From positions 95,675 to 135,674 of the forward strand of contig CAWAMX010000018.1 of the NCBI GenBank assembly GCA_963783295.1: 40,000 bases of DNA, given 5' to 3'. A model generated the notes under the pieces. The model made no database searches and was not told the origin of the DNA. It saw only the letters and a list, made by a program, of their open reading frames with translations. Positions within the stretch are counted from its first letter, which is position 1; every line of letters starts with the position of its first letter. This DNA comes from an uncultured Chloroflexia bacterium. Lineage in GTDB: Bacteria > Chloroflexota > Anaerolineae > Anaerolineales > Villigracilaceae. This document shows, piece by piece, positions 9,380 to 16,643 of the stretch. Position numbers and translations under genes: made by a program.

Positions 9380-10846
9380 GGGAGTACGCAAAGTTTGTCA
9401 GTCGGCCAAGGGTAAACCAGCATAGGATGGCTTCAGGGAATCCCAAGACTTACTGAGCCAAGCGGCTCGGGCTTTGGCAGTTGCAATGACCCCAGGCAGG
9501 GTCCAACGTGCGCCAGAACGTTTCAACCGGACAGCGGCAATCTGCTTGCAAGCGCTTTCGATGGTTCCGCTGCCGATCAGATACCCGAGTTGGCGAAAAC
9601 GTGCGTAGTCCATACGTTTCTCATTGTGATCGTAATAGGTGATTGCCTTTTCGATGAAGGGATGTGCGGCGGTGTGCGAAAGCAAACTGCGACAGGATTG
9701 AATCACATCTTGAATGCGTCCTTCCCACAGTTCGGTACGCACTTGGGTCAGCCATTCGTGAGCCTGTGGCGTGTTTGGGCCGAACGCCGCTTCTGCGATG
9801 GGTGTGAGATATTCGCTGGCGTGATACCAATCCACGATTTGTACGGCGTTTGGATAATATTTTTGCACTAGGTTCCAAATCCACACAGCACCGTCTGAGA
9901 CAAAGACGATTTCTTCATAGCCGTCGACCTGATGTTGGATACCCGTAGCCCATAACAATCGTCCAAATTGTTCGGCTTCCTGGATGTCGCAGTGGTATTT
10001 CATGTTCTTGGCTTGCAGATGACTTTGTTCTCCAACGCGGGATCCGTGGTGATTTTGGGGATGAGAAAGGTGAATCTGCTCCACTTCATACCAACACAAC
10101 GTTTTCAACTCTCGCCACTCCCCGTGCAAGGGCACATGCGCACCATCGACCGAGGCATAGAGGCGCCCAAGATGCCTGGGGAGGCGCTGCTCCCGTTCTT
10201 CTAATCCTTTCATGTCTTCTGCCGCTTGTTTCCATTCTTCTTCGAGTTGGGCTTGTGCCTGTCCATAGCCTTCGGTCTGTTTGAGTACGGTATGATCGCT
10301 TACTCGAAATAACAGAAAACGCTCCGCCAATTGACTGGCTTCTTCAAACGATGTTTCCACTCCCAAGATCCCGAGTAAGCTCGCCAGTCCCGCTGTACTC
10401 TGTCCCGGTCTCAATCCCAAGCGCTCATCCAAGGGTGACTGCCCACAATGGCAATGCGCACACAGATAATATCGACGCCGATAATTCACTTTGCCAAACA
10501 CACTCCATACCACGGCTTCCCGCTTGCCCAGCGGCTCCGCTTCCGCTCCGCATCCACAGCGGACGCAACTTGCATATTTCGCTTCATTCGCTTCAATCAT
10601 TTCCTGCAATCCAAGCCCACAGGCTTCTTTCGCTAACTCGCGCAGCGCTTGTTCGATCTCTGCCACTTGCGCACCTTCCTCGAGTTTCTCCTGCACCGCC
10701 TCGCTCATGATTTCCGCTATCTTTCTTACCACTGCTATGCTAAACTTCATCTCGAGCCTCCTGAGTATCCTTTGGTCTGTGAGAAGCCCAAAGCTTACCT
10801 TAGAGGCTCATTTTTGAAAATCCACTTACAACCTTTACGTGCACCC
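9380..10846 (-). mobile_element. ISKra4-like insertion sequence (1467 bp) with imperfect 18-bp terminal inverted repeats and 8-bp target-site duplication
   Basis: IR-L GGGAGTACGCAAAGTTTG (9380-9397) matches the reverse complement of 10829-10846, GGGTGCACGTAAAGGTTG, at 13/18 positions. Flanking direct repeats TTAGAAGG lie at 9372-9379 and 10847-10854. A single transposase ORF fills the element. Confidence 0.75.
9398..10750 (-). CDS. ISKra4-family DDE transposase
   Basis: 450-aa ORF. N-terminal Cys-rich zinc-ribbon (CVRCGCG...CAHCHCG). DDE-type blocks VSDGAVWIWN, DWYHASEYL and YLIGSGTIESACKQ. Family name assigned from recalled motif pattern, not a search. Confidence 0.8.
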   Translation of the reverse strand: MKFSIAVVRKIAEIMSEAVQEKLEEGAQVAEIEQALRELAKEACGLGLQEMIEANEAKYASCVRCGCGAEAEPLGKREAVVWSVFGKVNYRRRYYLCAHCHCGQSPLDERLGLRPGQSTAGLASLLGILGVETSFEEASQLAERFLLFRVSDHTVLKQTEGYGQAQAQLEEEWKQAAEDMKGLEEREQRLPRHLGRLYASVDGAHVPLHGEWRELKTLCWYEVEQIHLSHPQNHHGSRVGEQSHLQAKNMKYHCDIQEAEQFGRLLWATGIQHQVDGYEEIVFVSDGAVWIWNLVQKYYPNAVQIVDWYHASEYLTPIAEAAFGPNTPQAHEWLTQVRTELWEGRIQDVIQSCRSLLSHTAAHPFIEKAITYYDHNEKRMDYARFRQLGYLIGSGTIESACKQIAAVRLKRSGARWTLPGVIATAKARAAWLSKSWDSLKPSYAGLPLAD

Positions 10847-10918: not shown

Positions 10919-10991
10919 GCCGAGATAGCTCAGTTGGTAGAGCACGCGACTGAAAATCGCGGTGTCCACAGTTCAATTCTGTGTCTCGGCA
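10919..10991 (+). tRNA. tRNA-Phe (anticodon GAA)
   Basis: Cloverleaf folded by hand: acceptor GCCGAGA/TCTCGGC, D-arm GCTC-AGTTGGTA-GAGC, anticodon arm CGCGA-CTGAAAA-TCGCG, T-arm CACAG-TTCAATT-CTGTG. No encoded CCA. Confidence 0.93.
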
Positions 10992-11017
10992 CTCTCGGTC
11001 AGGAAGAAGACCGACCT

Positions 11018-11089
11018 GCGGGCGTAGTACAGCGGTAGTACGTCTCCTTGCCAAGGAGAAGGTCGTGGGTTCGAATCCCATCGCCCGCT
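11018..11089 (+). tRNA. tRNA-Gly (anticodon GCC)
   Basis: Acceptor GCGGGCG/CGCCCGC, anticodon arm TCTCC-TTGCCAA-GGAGA, T-arm GTGGG-TTCGAAT-CCCAT. Confidence 0.93.
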
Positions 11090-11093
11090 CTGG

Positions 11094-11124
11094 ATGAGGA
11101 TTGCAAACCAGCAATCCTCATTTT
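11094..11124 (+). terminator. intrinsic terminator after tRNA-Gly
   Basis: ATGAGGATTGC-aaacca-GCAATCCTCAT (11-bp perfect stem) followed by TTTTAT. Confidence 0.75.
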
Positions 11125-11141
11125 ATAATATAGTGAAAGAT

Positions 11142-11212
11142 GGCGTCGTGGCCAAGTGGTAAGGCAAGGGTCTGCAAAACCCTCATCACGGGTCCGAATC
11201 CCGTCGACGCCT
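11142..11212 (+). tRNA. tRNA-Cys (anticodon GCA)
   Basis: Acceptor GGCGTCG/CGACGCC, 3-bp D-stem, anticodon arm AGGGT-CTGCAAA-ACCCT, T-arm ACGGG-TCCGAAT-CCCGT. TATAAT at 11124-11129 lies upstream. Confidence 0.9.
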
Positions 11213-11233
11213 CAATAGACAAATGAACGATAA

Positions 11234-11265: not shown

Positions 11266-12476
11266 TATTTAACTCTGACAAACTTACGTTTGCCTGCTTG
11301 CAACACTCCTGAGTGTGGAAAAGGAACATCACCCCGCTCCAGTGTTTCGCCATCGAGACGCGCACCTTTCTGTTCGATCAAACGTTTTGCTTCGCTCTTA
11401 CTAGATGCCAATCCCGCGCTCAATAAGACATCAATCACCGTTGCGCCATTTGGCAATTTGAATTCTGGCATTTCTTCAGGTGCTTCTCGTTCTTGAAAAA
11501 CGCGCTTGAACTGTCCTTCCGCTTCTTCCGCCGCAGACTTGCCATAAAAAATCTCGACGATCTCAAGCGCCAATTCCTTTTTCACATCGCGCGGATGACG
11601 TGAATTATTTTTCAATGCGGCTTCAACGTCTCGGATCTGAGCTGGTGTGTAACGAGTCGCAAGCTTAAAGTAGATCGGCATCACGTTATCAGGAATACTC
11701 ATCACTTTGCCATACATATCTTCGGGCGTGGCATGGATCGGGATGTGATTGCCCAACGACTTGGACATGCGAACCACGCCGTCTGTGCCAGGCAGGATGC
11801 TGACAAGGATTCCAATCTGAGGCCGCTCGCCATAGAGTTCCTGCAATTTACGTCCAGCAGTGATGATGTTGAATAACTGGTCACTACCGCCGACTTGAAC
11901 ATCGGTGTTCATGGCGACAGCGTCATAGCCCTGCATCAAGGCGTAAAATGTTTCATGCAAATACACCGGATCACCTTTTTCCCATCGCAGTTTGAAATTT
12001 TCGCGCGAGATAAATTGTTGAATGGTAAACGCCGAACCGAGTTTAATCATATCGGCTAGTTTCAAATCCAACAACCATTCATGATTGAAGCGGATTTTTG
12101 TTTTCTCACGATCCAGAATCGTGAAAGCCTGCTCGGCATAAGTCCGCGCGTTGTGTTCGGTCTCTTCCTTCGATAAAACAGCGCGCAATTTGTCCTTGTC
12201 TGATGGATCGCCAACCATGCTGGTGCCTGTGCCAATCAAGAACGTCACCTCGTGGCCTAAATCCTGAAATTGGCGCAGTTTACGCATGGTAATGGTATGC
12301 CCCAAATGCAAATCGGATGTGCGTGGATCATAGCCGCAATAGACACGCAAAGGCCGTCCCTCTTTTTGCGCTTCAACCAAGCGTGCCCGCAATTCGGTGG
12401 TCATGGCTTTTTTCAGATCCTCGTCGCCATATTCCGTGCCTTGCATCAAAAGTTCAACCTGCTCATCTATGTTCAA
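11265..12476 (-). CDS. tyrS: tyrosine--tRNA ligase (type with C-terminal S4 domain)
   Basis: HIGH motif HLGH, KMSKS variant RMSKS, YCGYDP block, and a C-terminal S4-like SKSEAKRLIEQKGARLDGE. Start reassigned to TTG 12476 (MNIDEQVELL...) preceded by GAGGAGG at 12488-12482. The ORF-track TTG at 12524 lies inside the upstream terminator hairpin. Confidence 0.93.
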   Translation of the reverse strand: MNIDEQVELLMQGTEYGDEDLKKAMTTELRARLVEAQKEGRPLRVYCGYDPRTSDLHLGHTITMRKLRQFQDLGHEVTFLIGTGTSMVGDPSDKDKLRAVLSKEETEHNARTYAEQAFTILDREKTKIRFNHEWLLDLKLADMIKLGSAFTIQQFISRENFKLRWEKGDPVYLHETFYALMQGYDAVAMNTDVQVGGSDQLFNIITAGRKLQELYGERPQIGILVSILPGTDGVVRMSKSLGNHIPIHATPEDMYGKVMSIPDNVMPIYFKLATRYTPAQIRDVEAALKNNSRHPRDVKKELALEIVEIFYGKSAAEEAEGQFKRVFQEREAPEEMPEFKLPNGATVIDVLLSAGLASSKSEAKRLIEQKGARLDGETLERGDVPFPHSGVLQAGKRKFVRVK

Positions 12477-12493
12477 AGAAACCTCCTCAAGAT

Positions 12494-12603
12494 AAAACAA
12501 AAACGCGCCCGCGAGGGCGCGCAATTATTCCCTCGCAATATTCTATGCGCGGGAATAATAGTATGGGAAAGCAAAGATGGAATTCATCCCCATTATTATA
12601 CCA
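12494..12603 (-). promoter_or_regulatory. tyrS leader: extended -10 promoter, Tyr-codon leader peptide, alternative 1:2/2:3/3:4 helices and intrinsic terminator (ribosome-mediated attenuator candidate)
   Basis: Minus strand: TGgTATAAT (12603-12595). Helix 1:2 is UUAUUCCC (12558-12551) with GGGAAUAA (12532-12525). Helix 2:3 is GCGAGGG (12536-12530) with CCCUCGC (12517-12511). Terminator is CGCGCCC (12521-12515) with GGGCGCG (12510-12504) plus UUUUUGUUUU (12503-12494). Confidence 0.7.
12543..12593 (-). CDS. candidate 16-aa leader peptide MGMNSIFAFPYYYSRA (or 14 aa from the second ATG at 12587)
   Basis: ATG GGG ATG AAT TCC ATC TTT GCT TTC CCA TAC TAT TAT TCC CGC GCA TAG. The three consecutive Tyr codons (12563-12555) overlap attenuator segment 1. 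There is no SD, and ATG 12587 lies about 7-8 nt after the -10 (possible leaderless start). Confidence 0.55.
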   Translation of the reverse strand: MGMNSIFAFPYYYSRA

Positions 12604-12606
12604 AAC

Positions 12607-13269
12607 TTATTGACCCAGATTCACGGCAAACGTCCATGGACCCTTGATCGTATAGAATTCGTCACTGTAGACGATTTTCTCAGCGTCCGCCTCCGACATC
12701 GAAGCAGGCTTGCTGACGATCTGCATGGCCATAACGCCGTTCGCGTTCGCCTTGCAATCCAGTGCGATGCCAAGGCCGCGTTTATTCAGGGTCTGCTGAA
12801 TCTTCGGCATATACAATGAACAATATTCATCAGGCGTTGGATAGGCGCCAATCGATTCAATCACCAGCGAAGCGGAAGTCAAATCGGCATCGGGAGGAAC
12901 ATAAAAGGTAACCTGGTCACATCGCTTTCCCGGCTGTCCATTGGAGCCGCTTTGCGTGGTCATTAATGACGCAGTGAAATCCGTGATGGACTGACCGCTG
13001 TAATCAAAGTGGGTGCTCCATATCGTCCAATCCGATGCGTCCGGCAAAGCAAAACAAACATCTGCATAAACTGTTTTACCGTCACGCCAAGCACGCTGAA
13101 GACTGAAATTAAATCCACCAACATTTTGATTGGAAACAGGTCCGGAGGCTTGCATGGTCGGATAGGATGCCTCTTCTATGGTTGGAAGAACAACTTGAGG
13201 CGATTGATTCGCGCCACAAGCCGACATGAATACCGCAGCAAAAACCAAAATTGGAATTAACTTTTTCAT
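12607..13269 (-). CDS. lipoprotein of unknown function
   Basis: Start moved to ATG 13269 (AGGAG SD; the upstream gene ends at 13280). Signal peptide MKKLIPILVFAAVFMSAC carries a lipobox (FMSAC). No recognisable catalytic motifs. Confidence 0.75.
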   Translation of the reverse strand: MKKLIPILVFAAVFMSACGANQSPQVVLPTIEEASYPTMQASGPVSNQNVGGFNFSLQRAWRDGKTVYADVCFALPDASDWTIWSTHFDYSGQSITDFTASLMTTQSGSNGQPGKRCDQVTFYVPPDADLTSASLVIESIGAYPTPDEYCSLYMPKIQQTLNKRGLGIALDCKANANGVMAMQIVSKPASMSEADAEKIVYSDEFYTIKGPWTFAVNLGQ

Positions 13270-13279
13270 TCGTAATCTC

Positions 13280-14170
13280 CTAATGAAACAGATCTGCAAG
13301 CGCAACTTCGACACGCGGAAATCGGAATTGATAACCGAGTTCGAGCAAACGTTTCGGCTGGCAATATCTTCCTTCCGTAACAAGAACACTCATCTCGCCA
13401 AGCATAACACGAAGCATGAATGATGGCGTCGGTAACCAATACGGTCGATGCAGGGTTTTCGCAACCGCCCGCATGAATTCCGCACTGGAGGTTGGTCCTG
13501 GCGCAATTAAATTATAAGCGCCATTCGCGTTTTGGTTCTCCATCAAAAAACGGATTGCGCCGATCACATCAGCCATGTGAATCCATGGCACAGCCTGCCT
13601 GCCATCTCCAATCGGTCCGCCTATAAAGAGGCGCACAGGCAAAGCCATCAGCGGAAAGATGCCGCCTTGCCTTGCAAGAACCACTGCCTGACGAAGGACA
13701 ACGCGTCGCACGCCCAATTCTTCAATTGATTTTATCGCGTCTTCCCATTGAATTGTGAGCTTTGCAAGAAAGTCATCCGCAGAAGGAGTTGTCTCATCGG
13801 CAACAGAGTCACCGCGCAGACCGTAATAGTTGATTCCAGAGGCTTGGACGAAAATGCGCGGGCGCTGAGTCGCTTCTTTGATGGCAGAGGCCAATGCCAG
13901 TCCGGGATTGACGCGTAAGTCAAGGAATTTTTGCTTTTGGGACTTTGTCCACGGCCAATGAGCCAAGCTAAATCCTGTCAGATTTATAATCGCATCCATA
14001 TCATTTACGCGTTGACCCCACTCTTTAGTAGTTTGCCCATCCCATTGAATTTGATTCGTTGATTCGGGAGACTGGCGCGTCAAAATGAAAACTTGATGAT
14101 AATCCGATAAAAGAGAGTCCGTCAGTGCCCGACCGATGAAGCCGGAACCACCTGCGATTAATATTTTCAT
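13280..14170 (-). CDS. TIGR01777-type NAD-dependent epimerase/dehydratase family protein (YfcH-like, C-terminal DUF1731)
   Basis: 296-aa ORF with GGAG SD. Rossmann motif MKILIAGGSGFIGRAL. C-terminal ...CQPKRLLELGYQFRFP is typical of the family. Confidence 0.8.
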   Translation of the reverse strand: MKILIAGGSGFIGRALTDSLLSDYHQVFILTRQSPESTNQIQWDGQTTKEWGQRVNDMDAIINLTGFSLAHWPWTKSQKQKFLDLRVNPGLALASAIKEATQRPRIFVQASGINYYGLRGDSVADETTPSADDFLAKLTIQWEDAIKSIEELGVRRVVLRQAVVLARQGGIFPLMALPVRLFIGGPIGDGRQAVPWIHMADVIGAIRFLMENQNANGAYNLIAPGPTSSAEFMRAVAKTLHRPYWLPTPSFMLRVMLGEMSVLVTEGRYCQPKRLLELGYQFRFPRVEVALADLFH

Positions 14171-14776: not shown

Positions 14777-16643
14777 ATCGAGTAGGAGGCGGCGGCTAAC
14801 CGCCTCCTCTCACACCACCGGACATGCGGGTCCGCATCCGGCGGTTCATCAAGCAAAACGCAGTTCTTGATACCGTTCTTTGATACTTTTCAGCCCTGAG
14901 TTGTGCCAATAGGTATTGCTCAGGGCTTGGTTTATCACAGGTGAGGCAGACAGTCGCCAAGGACTTGTGCCCTCAGCTCCTTCCTGTGCCCATTGCTTGG
15001 GGACGCCCAGCTTCACTAATTCTCGGTAGCGGGTTATACCCCGTTTCCAGCGTTTCCAAATCAGTTGCCTCAATCGTCGTCGTATCCAACCGTCCAGTTC
15101 TTCAAAAACCTTCGATGCGTCAGCCAGCCGGTAATATCCAATCCAACCGATGATGTAACGGTTGATCTCTTCCAAAATTTGTTCCAACCCGCCGCTTCGA
15201 GTACGTTTTGTCAGGTTACGTAACTTTTCCATAAAGCGTTCCTTCGTCCGGTTCGCTATTCGGATCAGCACGATCCCTTTGCGCTTGAAGAAACTGAACC
15301 CGAGAATTTTCACCTTCCCCGCTTTCTCAACTTTACTCTTCTTGGAGTTGACTTTCAACTTAAGCTTCTTTTCCAGAAACCCTTTCACGCTTTCCATTAC
15401 TCGTTCACCCGCTCGCTGCGTTTTGACATAGATATTGCAGTCATCGGCATAGCGCACAAATTTGTGCCCGCGCTTTTCCAGCTCTTTGTCTAAATCGTCC
15501 AGCATGATATTGGACAGCAATGGGGAGAGCGGACCACCTTGTGGCACACCCTCTTCTGCATCCATTATTACTCCATTAATCATCACTCCCGATTCCAGAT
15601 ACGCTCGGATCAGCTTGAGCACTCGTTTGTCTTTCACCACACGTGCCACGCGGGCCATCAGCATATCGTGATTCACTCGATCAAAGTATTTCTCCAGATC
15701 GATATCCACACACCATTCGTATCCTTCTTGCACATACGTTTGGGCTTGTCTCACGGCTCCATGCGCACTGCGGCCGGGTCGGAACCCGTAGCTATGCTCT
15801 GAAAAGAGCGGTTCGAATAACGGAACCAACACCTGTGCTATCGCTTGCTGGAGTAAGCGATCCACTACATTCGGTATCCCTAACTGCCTGACCCCGCCAT
15901 CGGGTTTGGCGATCTCTACCCGCCTGACTGGGCTCGGCCGATAGGCTCCGCTTTCGAGAATTGCCCTGGTCTCCAACCAATGTTCCTTCAGGTGTGGACG
16001 AAGTTCTTTCACCGTCATCCCGTCGATGCCCGGTGCTCCGCCGTTGCTCTCTACTCGCTTCATCGCTATGAGTAAGTTCTGTCTTTCCCAAATCCTTTCC
16101 CACAGCCCTGCGTCGGAAGTTCGCTCGTCTCGCACTGAGGACGGCTCGGCTCTCGGTTCCAATCCCGTCGGATTCACCGACTTCGCTGGCTCCGCAGTAT
16201 CCCTATCCGGGAAAGACGGCCTTCTGTGTTCATCCTGCAAGCTGCTCAAGTTACTATTCCTGTTTAATGTTCGGCCCTTCCCACTCAAACGGGAGTGGTA
16301 GTATGGCCTCGGCTGACCCCTGCCATTTCAATCCGATTTCTCAATCGGGGTTCCCGGTTTTCCAGTGTAATGGCAGGTCTCCCCAGGTAAGAGCGTTAGC
16401 TGTCTCTGCATCCCTGTCCCATTTACTGCTTCAGCCTTTGACTGCATTGGGCTTCGTTGTTACTTGCCAACTCGCCCTGCCTCACAGCCTCCTATGAGCT
16501 TCTTATTCATCAGGTCGCAGATTTGCCTCCGGCTTCCTCCAGACCCCACCTCACGGTGACGCCCTTGCCTTCAGCTAACGGTTGGTGCAATCTACCTCCG
16601 TAAAGGTCTTTCACCTTCTAGCCAACGCCCATGCTGGGCGCAC
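14777..16643 (-). mobile_element. group II intron (bacterial class C-like), apparently complete, 1867 nt
   Basis: The minus strand begins GTGCGCCCAGCATGGGCG at 16643. Domain V is at about 14845-14814 (CGCCGGAUGCG-gacc-CGCAUGUCCGGUG with 2-nt bulge and a CGC triad). Domain VI is AGGAGGCGG-uuagccg-CCGCCUCCU with a bulged A (14783) 6 nt from the 3' end ...CUCGAU (14777). An RT ORF lies in between, and the element sits immediately after a terminator stem. Confidence 0.85.
14849..16288 (-). CDS. group II intron reverse transcriptase/maturase (no En domain)
   Basis: RT blocks GAPGIDGMT, RQLGIPNVVDR, SYGFRPGRSAH, VDIDLEKYFD, GVPQGGPLSPLLSN, FVRYADDCNIY, plus an X/maturase domain. The true start is probably internal: the first ~50 codons of the maximal TTG-initiated ORF are intron RNA, and the RT-0 block starts near LWERIWERQNLL. 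Confidence 0.9.
   Translation of the reverse strand: MSGKGRTLNRNSNLSSLQDEHRRPSFPDRDTAEPAKSVNPTGLEPRAEPSSVRDERTSDAGLWERIWERQNLLIAMKRVESNGGAPGIDGMTVKELRPHLKEHWLETRAILESGAYRPSPVRRVEIAKPDGGVRQLGIPNVVDRLLQQAIAQVLVPLFEPLFSEHSYGFRPGRSAHGAVRQAQTYVQEGYEWCVDIDLEKYFDRVNHDMLMARVARVVKDKRVLKLIRAYLESGVMINGVIMDAEEGVPQGGPLSPLLSNIMLDDLDKELEKRGHKFVRYADDCNIYVKTQRAGERVMESVKGFLEKKLKLKVNSKKSKVEKAGKVKILGFSFFKRKGIVLIRIANRTKERFMEKLRNLTKRTRSGGLEQILEEINRYIIGWIGYYRLADASKVFEELDGWIRRRLRQLIWKRWKRGITRYRELVKLGVPKQWAQEGAEGTSPWRLSASPVINQALSNTYWHNSGLKSIKERYQELRFA

Follow-up and report, generated by a model that had tools for sequence, protein, structure and literature searches.

A probable tyrosine leader-peptide attenuator upstream of tyrS in Anaerolineae

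Introduction

How is tyrS, the gene for tyrosine--tRNA ligase, adjusted to the supply of charged tRNA-Tyr in a bacterium that carries no T-box in front of it? The question is raised by a stretch of 40 kb, referred to here as the window (contig CAWAMX010000018.1 of assembly GCA_963783295.1), from an uncultured Chloroflexia bacterium of the Anaerolineales (Chloroflexota), in which the space upstream of tyrS holds a small open reading frame (ORF) with three consecutive Tyr codons and an intrinsic terminator. The tyrS gene is the textbook T-box gene, and leader-peptide attenuation is among the oldest known RNA switches. The known repertoire of leader peptides covers Trp, His, Leu, Ile/Val, Thr, and Phe, together with a few aminoacyl-tRNA synthetase (aaRS) genes for Ala, Cys, and Met. 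In this study, we show that the Tyr-codon ORF and the terminator are kept in front of tyrS in related genomes and that a predicted antiterminator covaries among them, and we consider it very likely from this comparison of sequences that the element is a ribosome-mediated leader-peptide transcription attenuator which matches the transcription of tyrS to the amount of charged tRNA-Tyr available.

Results

The leader lies on the minus strand between the TAA stop of an upstream ORF, found by sequence reading at 12609-12607, and tyrS itself (12476-11265; 403 aa, TIGR00234, E = 1e-101), which starts with TTG in the window and with ATG or GTG at the same position in relatives. It opens with an extended -10 element, TGGTATAAT (12603-12595), upstream of which no good -35 was seen in the window. 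The ORF that follows, when read from its first ATG, is ATGGGGATGAATTCCATCTTTGCTTTCCCATACTATTATTCCCGCGCATAG (12593-12543), with the codons ATG GGG ATG AAT TCC ATC TTT GCT TTC CCA TAC TAT TAT TCC CGC GCA TAG, and encodes MGMNSIFAFPYYYSRA before the stop. The conserved leader ORF is shorter, as its start is the one kept in relatives, and runs from 12587 to 12543, encoding the 14-aa peptide MNSIFAFPYYYSRA followed by a UAG stop (12545-12543). Its three consecutive Tyr codons, UAC UAU UAU (12563-12555), occupy positions -6 to -4 before the stop and are the putative sensor.

Three segments of the leader RNA can pair in alternative ways. Segment 1 (AUUAUUCCC-G-CGCA; 12559-12546) would form the 5' arm of an anti-antiterminator according to minimum free energy (MFE) structures and masking tests; its core, TTATTCCC (12558-12551), is complementary to the core of segment 2, GGGAATAA (12532-12525), and an inner helix of CGCA (12549-12546) with TGCG (12537-12534) extends the 1:2 pairing. 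Segment 2 (UGCG-A-GGGAAUAAU; 12537-12524) has segment 3 as its alternative partner, by way of UUGCGAGGG (12538-12530), and the core of this antiterminator is GCGAGGG (12536-12530) with CCCTCGC (12517-12511). Segment 3 (CCCUCGCGG; 12517-12509), the predicted 3' arm of the antiterminator by nascent-RNA folding and covariation, is made up of the end of the terminator 5' arm, the terminator loop, and the first bases of the 3' arm. The intrinsic terminator, GCGCGCCC-UCGC-GGGCGCGU followed by U5GU4 (12522-12494), has a stem core of CGCGCCC (12521-12515) with GGGCGCG (12510-12504) and the T-tract TTTTTGTTTT (12503-12494). Beyond it lies the Shine-Dalgarno sequence of tyrS, GAGGAGG (12488-12482), which is kept in close relatives. 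The gap from the U-tract to the tyrS start codon is only 17 nt and free of promoters, and therefore tyrS transcripts must pass through the terminator. A first-pass annotation of this DNA had described such a set of elements, and direct reading together with a script coordinate check located every one of them on the minus strand where it had been placed.

Homologs of TyrS assign the window to the Anaerolineales (Chloroflexota). We compared it with 80 tyrS loci of Anaerolineae, one genome per species, whose TyrS proteins are 65-96% identical to that of the window; numbers such as L008, L010, and L113 denote the related tyrS loci or metagenome contigs compared. The module, that is, a Tyr-rich ORF end, a hairpin with a U-run about 20 nt on, and then tyrS, is present in 64 of the 80 loci, as expected from the first-pass proposal that relatives should keep a short upstream ORF (uORF) with tandem Tyr codons. 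Tyr stands at codon -4 in 58, at -5 in 58, and at -6 in 50 of these 64 leaders, and at nearly all loci three codons stand between the last Tyr and the stop. The codon used for Tyr alternates between TAT and TAC, and the Tyr runs vary by whole codons, from 2 to 6. The other peptide positions are not conserved as amino acids, with the exception of an Arg/His tendency at -2, where the C-rich codons fall within an RNA helix. At no locus does the terminator stand with a clearly Tyr-free ORF, and the few degenerate cases, L036, L185, and L020, still have one or two spaced Tyr codons. A covariance model (R1), built on 47 leaders with the terminator stem as the sole given structure, gives a single hit at each locus, scoring 42-82 bits, apart from a weaker one in L036 (32.5 bits), and also matches 17 metagenome contigs (53-82 bits). 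Each locus has a single copy of the terminator motif, and this copy is invariably found immediately ahead of tyrS.

A scan over 540 kb, the window plus 500 kb of flanks, for a -10 followed by a short ORF with a residue run and a terminator returned tyrS leaders and no other leaderless leader peptide. Searching metagenomes for ACGCGCCC-N4-14-GGGCGCGTTTTT gave 120 stretches, mostly generic gene-end terminators together with about 17 further Tyr/tyrS leaders. The idea that leaders for other amino acids might have this terminator module in common is not supported, as none of the 120 stretches has another residue run.

Some individual leaders and their codons deserve mention. The longest Tyr run found is in a metagenome tyrS leader, L113:1601-1677 (minus strand), with six Tyr codons, TAT five times and then TAC. 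UAU makes up 79% of the leader Tyr codons (145 of 184 in the 64 leaders) versus 47% in the adjacent tyrS genes, which could mean either that the wobble-read codon is selected for or that RNA pairing limits the choice of codon, as with AUUAUU in the window, which pairs with AAUAAU. At L066:1980-2500, the leader (MNVPVYFYYFLS) and its terminator lie 417 nt upstream of tyrS, and a small ORF with a hydrophobic N-terminus, starting from 2128, is found between the terminator and tyrS, so that the attenuator there would control a two-gene unit. The spacer of about 140-190 nt between terminator and tyrS in L012 and L013 is filled with short repeats, AGAGATTAGAGAATAG... and then CTCCACTCTCCACTCTCC..., and these blocks, which show partial mutual complementarity, might fold into a second, long hairpin.

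Each of the 43 stand-alone uORFs in the relatives has a TA[T/C]AAT hexamer ahead of it, and this is a perfect TATAAT in all but one; a TG is found within 3 nt before the hexamer in 17 of the 43. The spacing from TATAAT to the start codon is 6-8 nt in 37 uORFs, and in the remaining six the script chose an earlier in-frame start, at least five of these also having an ATG 6-7 nt past the hexamer. In every one of these uORFs, which have 12-18 codons, the start codon shares its reading frame with the Tyr run and the stop; length and frame are kept across relatives, and the N-terminal part of 8-10 residues is essentially random. In the window, the ATG at 12587 starts 7 nt past the -10 hexamer and the uORF has no Shine-Dalgarno sequence; the first ATG, at 12593, is not conserved and is located upstream of the predicted transcription start. 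As judged from this comparison, the conserved leader start in the window is the second ATG, 12587, and not 12593, and the conservation of this ATG and its distance of 7 nt from the -10 make a leaderless uORF probable. The extended -10 of the first-pass annotation is thus not only present but has a hexamer conserved in relatives; its uORF stands with regard to the three Tyr codons and not with regard to the first ATG, which had been taken as the start; and its guess that translation might begin leaderless at the second ATG agrees with the spacing in the 37 uORFs.

Covariation was clearest for the antiterminator. In every subfamily, segment 2 begins 5-8 nt past the stop and is complementary to the terminator loop and the adjoining stem bases, and the pair GCGAGGG/CCCUCGC of the window has covarying counterparts in CGAUGGUG/CACCAUCG and GCGGUGGUG/CACCAUCGC, as well as in CGCUGCGG/CCGCAGCG, CCUGCUGUG/CACAGCAGG, and CCCUCGGC/GCCGAGGG. 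In a structure-blind MAFFT alignment (A1), 92.6% of the antiterminator is paired versus 34-51% after shifting one strand of the helix by 1-3 columns, and 50 cells are changed on both sides, a value reached by 0 of 500 shuffles. In a model-based alignment fitted to the terminator only (A2), 93.2% is paired versus 23-48% when slid, and both partners have changed in 7 of 8 pairs, which again 0 of 500 shuffles reach. These pairings were counted over 47-67 sequences, and the number of pairs changed on both sides is 4 to 7 depending on the alignment. The terminator stem is nearly invariant across the family; A1 misplaces its 5' arm in the window's clade, a fault that A2 mends in part, and for this reason the terminator helix was left unscored on A1.

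Helix 1:2 behaves differently from the antiterminator. Family-wide, 63.8% of it is paired in the register of the window versus 37-52% when slid, and 69.4% in the register of the commonest subfamily versus 28-57% when slid. Within the window's clade, the inner helix CGCA/UGCG has become CGCG/CGCG in L008, an apparently compensatory change. The energies of cognate versus swapped duplexes favor both 1:2 and 2:3 (0 of 5000 permutations each), in a comparison that is confounded by relatedness. We treat helix 1:2 as real in the window and optional in the family, and on the comparative evidence the antiterminator is the best-supported helix, with clear compensatory change. It had been claimed at first that three mutually exclusive helices make up the switch; the antiterminator part of this claim is strengthened by covariation that no shuffle reached (0/500), and the 1:2 part is without convincing covariation across the family.

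The leader structure in the window is beyond chance. The MFE fold of 12595-12470 has -34.5 kcal/mol and contains the 1:2 hairpin, which is 13 bp long in the window's clade, together with the terminator; its z-score is -3.4 versus dinucleotide shuffles, of which 1 in 200 folds equally well. A terminator scan detected a hairpin with a loop of 4 nt and a stem of 8 bp, seven of them G-C, followed by a T-run; its core has -16 kcal/mol, and this terminator pattern occurs once in the 40-kb window versus 0 expected from 100 shuffles. We also examined the geometry of the proposed switch by folding the nascent leader with the ribosome footprint masked. With masking to +11 to +13 nt from a Tyr codon in the A site and the RNA ending at 12511, a 7-bp 2:3 hairpin of -11.5 kcal/mol is formed. 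When the footprint of a ribosome with its A site on the stop codon is masked, only -2.2 kcal/mol is left for 2:3, and in the ribosome-free nascent RNA, 1:2 forms (-19 kcal/mol) and 2:3 is absent.

A second arrangement, termed here class B, was found in a sister group of Anaerolineae, in 21 of the 80 loci (L024, L026, L028-L030, L034, L035, L037, L038, L040, and L046, and further L052-L054, L061, L065, L067, L068, L072, L077, and L078). In these there is no separate uORF, and the Tyr run forms the last codons (-6 to -4) of a conserved upstream protein of about 180 aa, at a site about 60-150 nt upstream of tyrS. The protein carries the motifs ENGLR...RWG..VQV.G..HF.F.T.LGEV.FQGEVRGRTGF.EG..IL and obtained no Pfam assignment except for a weak bPH_6 hint. 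One class B locus, L068, is from a metagenome-assembled genome (MAG) labelled Anaerolinea thermophila. Sixteen of the fused loci use another antiterminator and terminator than the stand-alone leaders. In this antiterminator ACGUUUUACG(UUUC), 1-7 nt past the stop, pairs with (GAAA)CGUAAAACGU, and the latter sits in the terminator loop and overlaps the 3' arm of the terminator, which in these loci consists of GCGCAUCACG...CGUGAUGCG with a U-run behind it. Covariation between subgroups is seen in the flanks (UUUC/GAAA versus AC/GU), and in 15 of the 16 loci at least six antiterminator pairs form in the fold with a ribosome placed on the Tyr codons. The class B helices were read directly from the sequences, as MAFFT shifts one subgroup and column scoring was ruled out. 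Class B provides independent support, at the level of sequence comparison, for the view that Tyr codons three codons before a stop and a switchable terminator together control tyrS.

The fused tails end in ...AYYYARG, ...MVYYARA, or ...VYYYGRA. The stand-alone leaders of the window, L001-L008, L014, and L023 end in Y-x-[R/H]-x-stop (YYYSRA, YYYTHT, YYYPHP), and homologs of the 180-aa protein that precede a stand-alone leader end in ...RYTRP, ...RYSRM, ...TYSRP, or ...IYSRE (Y-[S/T]-R-x-stop). This likeness between the leader ends and the C-terminus of the upstream protein hints at a common origin or at shared RNA constraints.

No known RNA family was detected at the leader. Rfam at gathering thresholds over the whole window returned no T-box (RF00230) and no leader family at this position, and at E <= 10 the interval 12350-12750 gave no T-box or leader family and only small RNA matches at chance level (E >= 1). 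Positions 2250-2520 of L010 likewise gave no T-box or known family in Rfam. A T-box or other known RNA family is rejected by these searches of the window and L010, in line with the first-pass annotation, which had anticipated that both T-box and known leader families would be negative. In the 16 loci that lack the leader, Rfam found no T-box before tyrS. True T-boxes (93-98 bits) are present at L057:1128-1392 and L079:1093-1356 (both on the minus strand), on the strand opposite to and near tyrS in Thermanaerothrix, indicating that the class possesses T-boxes and does not use them for tyrS in those genomes, which have no Tyr leader.

With regard to the genomic neighborhood, a cluster of tRNA-Phe(GAA), tRNA-Gly(GCC), and tRNA-Cys(GCA) genes lies at 10919-11213 on the plus strand, convergent with tyrS, and no tRNA-Tyr gene is among the tRNAs neighboring tyrS. 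Just past this cluster, downstream of tyrS, is an ISKra4-family transposase gene (9398-10750, minus strand; NF033572, E = 6e-73). Neither Pfam nor NCBIfam has a match for the ORF upstream of the leader (12607-13389, minus strand; 260 aa), which is nevertheless syntenic with tyrS in many relatives and has the C-terminus ...FYT[IV]KGPW.F..NLGQ. With the GTG start listed for it, this ORF would share 110 nt with the yfcH-like oxidoreductase gene before it (13280-14170, minus strand), so that translation probably begins at a more downstream codon. A group II intron (14777-16560, minus strand; Rfam RF00029, RF01998, RF02001) lies three genes upstream of tyrS and encloses a 479-aa ORF (14849-16288).

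Discussion

From the elements, their conservation, and the covariation of the antiterminator we infer a start site, a leaderless mode of translation, a stalling step, and a regulatory outcome that would follow one another in this way. Transcription would start about 7 nt past TGGTATAAT, so that the mRNA begins at or next to the AUG at 12587, and a ribosome would translate the 14-codon leader right behind RNA polymerase. When Tyr-tRNA(Tyr) is scarce, the ribosome is expected to stall with one of the Tyr codons (12563-12555) in the A site and with a footprint that hides segment 1, to about the stop codon. Segment 2, left free (12538-12530), would then pair with segment 3 (12517-12509) as soon as this has been made, which would partly consume the terminator and permit read-through into tyrS. 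When Tyr-tRNA is plentiful, the ribosome would reach the UAG (12545-12543), four codons on, where its footprint covers the 5' part of segment 2, and after its release segment 1 would pair with segment 2; with the ribosome at the stop or released, the terminator (12522-12503) with its U-tract would form and transcription would end before tyrS. The near-invariant gap of three codons between the Tyr run and the stop fits this geometry, since a move of 12 nt would shift the edge of the modelled ribosome from the stop codon onto segment 2. Transcripts entering from the upstream gene would carry the uORF internally and without a Shine-Dalgarno sequence, and would be expected to fold 1:2 and terminate; because of this, the element probably doubles as the terminator of the upstream gene.

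Several observations weigh against this attenuation mechanism, or at least against its simplest form. The covariation of helix 1:2 is unconvincing, in that 95 of 500 shuffles reach the observed value, and its register varies between subfamilies. Masking of segment 1 does not make the antiterminator (-11.5 kcal/mol) more stable at equilibrium than the terminator, which has -20.7 kcal/mol when its flanking A/U pairs are included, and the switch must therefore be kinetic, like that of the Escherichia coli trp leader. In distant relatives the stalled and at-stop states separate less cleanly under simple masking, a mixed result that is due in part to segment 3 reaching into the 3' arm and to a crude truncation point. 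The module is absent altogether from 16 of the 80 relatives, including Thermoflexales and Thermanaerothrix, and we know of no demonstration so far of leaderless translation in Anaerolineae.

Other explanations of the same elements have to be weighed. It might be argued that the terminator is a general sensor of translation coupling, reporting any ribosome behind the polymerase and thereby the overall capacity for translation instead of tRNA-Tyr charging, and that the Tyr codons play no part in it. Whatever slows the leading ribosome on the uORF should indeed lead to this structural outcome, and untranslated RNA folds the antiterminator by default in several relatives and at class B loci. We regard this idea as improbable, given that Tyr is fixed at -6 to -4 in 50-58 of the 64 leaders where all other positions vary, that the Tyr runs expand to six, and that the regulated gene is the Tyr-specific synthetase. 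Nor do we find it easy to see the hairpin as an ordinary terminator of the upstream gene next to a chance ORF, with tyrS expressed by constitutive leakage or from an unseen promoter. Read-through from the upstream ORF (stop 12607) would end at the leader terminator, as there is no other one between that ORF and the leader, and the bare stem ACGCGCCC..GGGCGCG-U5 is common as a generic terminator in metagenomes. A plain terminator would have no need for a loop that covaries with segment 2, and the generic metagenome terminators have neither a long complementary loop nor a Tyr ORF; moreover, a conserved consensus -10 lies upstream of the hairpin, and in the window the gap from the U-tract to tyrS is too short to hold a promoter, which makes this explanation very improbable.

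Two further possibilities dispense with a translated sensor or with the RNA switch. If the uORF were untranslated, the RNA could sense tRNA or protein directly, either as a minimal T-box-like element with UAU/UAC as specifier and a UGGN in segment 2 or through TyrS autoregulation. The GGUGGU in segment 2 of many relatives recalls the UGGN bulge of T-boxes, which do exist in the class (L057, L079). Against this, the leader has no T-box match even at E <= 10, the window's clade has UGCGAGGG and no UGGN at this place, and the GGUGG bases, where present, are not bulged but fully paired in the covarying antiterminator. There is also no equivalent of Stem I, because the whole leader is only about 90 nt long, and the signals are specific to the reading frame (the fixed distance from -10 to start, the stop three codons past the Tyr run, the 3-nt expansions), so that direct sensing of tRNA or protein seems to us highly improbable. 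A functional micropeptide with unrelated hairpins would explain why the ORF is conserved in presence and length. It is the least probable of the explanations considered, as conservation is limited to the Tyr run and to codons located in RNA helices, the first 8-10 residues vary essentially at random, and the class B tail belongs to an unrelated protein. A leader-peptide attenuator responding to tRNA-Tyr charging remains the reading that we prefer.

The putative gene-end sensor of class B is the most unusual observation of this analysis. It is an evenly balanced matter to us whether a bona fide gene end serves as the amino acid sensor of an intercistronic tyrS attenuator in these loci; the stand-alone leader may have been derived from such a gene end, or the reverse. 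If the proposed mechanism holds, Chloroflexota would sense the charging of tRNA-Tyr via the ribosome instead of a tRNA-binding RNA. The new family, with about 80 sequences and clear covariation, would be suitable for an Rfam entry and for genome annotation, and leader ORFs of 12-16 codons such as these are missed by gene finders. It also offers natural variants for dissecting attenuators, with 2-6 Tyr codons, a leaderless uORF versus a gene-end sensor, and helix 1:2 present or absent. Anaerolinea thermophila has a cultured type strain, in which the element could be tested if that strain carries it too.

Among known systems, the classical leaders of ribosome-mediated attenuation, including the trp, his, leu, and thr leaders and that of E. 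coli pheST (pheM), provide the model for the proposed mechanism (summarized in PMC1262725, PMC1183508). The tyrS leader shares with pheST and the trp-type leaders a short ORF with tandem cognate codons, a set of mutually exclusive anti-antiterminator, antiterminator, and terminator helices (predicted in the tyrS leader), and the expected blocking of segment 2 by a ribosome at the stop, and pheST is likewise an aaRS operon. It differs from them in its amino acid and gene (Tyr and tyrS), in its occurrence in Chloroflexota, in the apparently leaderless uORF without a Shine-Dalgarno sequence, in having no sequence or Rfam similarity, and in the weak helix 1:2 across the family. For class B, the nearest known precedent may be sought by analogy in the intercistronic attenuator of E. 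coli rph-pyrE, which senses UTP through polymerase pausing. In rph-pyrE, and in class B as proposed here, the 3' end of a full-length upstream gene acts as the leader ORF and the position of the leading ribosome decides on termination ahead of the next gene; rph-pyrE has no run of cognate codons, whereas class B has a terminal Tyr run and an explicit antiterminator.

The closest architectural match to the window leader is found in the leaderless leaders of Streptomyces and Deinococcus. In Streptomyces lividans, alaS, thrS, trpS, and leuS have leader peptides, several of them leaderless (PMC8079986), attenuators having also been predicted for Streptomyces trpS and leuS (PMC1262725), and in Deinococcus deserti leader peptides on leaderless transcripts are described before cysS and other genes, 14 in all (PMC4007540). 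They have in common with the window leader a 5'-terminal AUG, which in the window is a predicted one, that starts a peptide of 10-22 aa rich in the cognate residue, a hairpin with a U-run, and an aaRS gene next to it; they belong to other phyla, and the support there comes from mapped transcription start sites, whereas here it is comparative (about 80 loci, covariation). The main text of the Streptomyces and Deinococcus papers contains no Tyr or tyrS example.

Other systems resemble the tyrS leader in part. The His leader peptides of the Bacillus hisS paralog and hisZ (PMC2965389; PMC9413887) also replace the T-box expected for an aaRS-type gene, but they differ in residue (His versus Tyr), in phylum (Firmicutes versus Chloroflexota), and in their unrelated sequences. 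The T-box of Bacillus subtilis tyrS (RF00230) has the regulated gene, the signal of uncharged versus charged tRNA-Tyr, and the terminator-versus-antiterminator read-out in common with our proposal; it binds the tRNA directly and without ribosomes by means of Stem I, a specifier codon, and the UGGN bulge, parts that are absent from the window leader. A leader peptide with a Tyr codon in the context of aromatic amino acids is aroR of Corynebacterium glutamicum (Phe-Tyr-Phe), which precedes aroF and is reported to be Phe-responsive, not Tyr-responsive (PMC11802643); unlike the leader of the tyrS gene, aroR holds just one Tyr codon, and its target belongs to a biosynthetic pathway.

It had been stated in the first-pass annotation that no Tyr-leader family is described for tyrS, and full-text literature searches, of incomplete coverage, likewise found no Tyr-run leader and no tyrS attenuator. 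The novelty is nonetheless smaller than was implied there, because attenuators with a leader peptide have already been described for other aaRS genes. The comparison with these systems supports the view that the mechanism would be of the classical trp/pheST type and that what appears to be new is its use for Tyr and tyrS in Chloroflexota, with a probably leaderless uORF.

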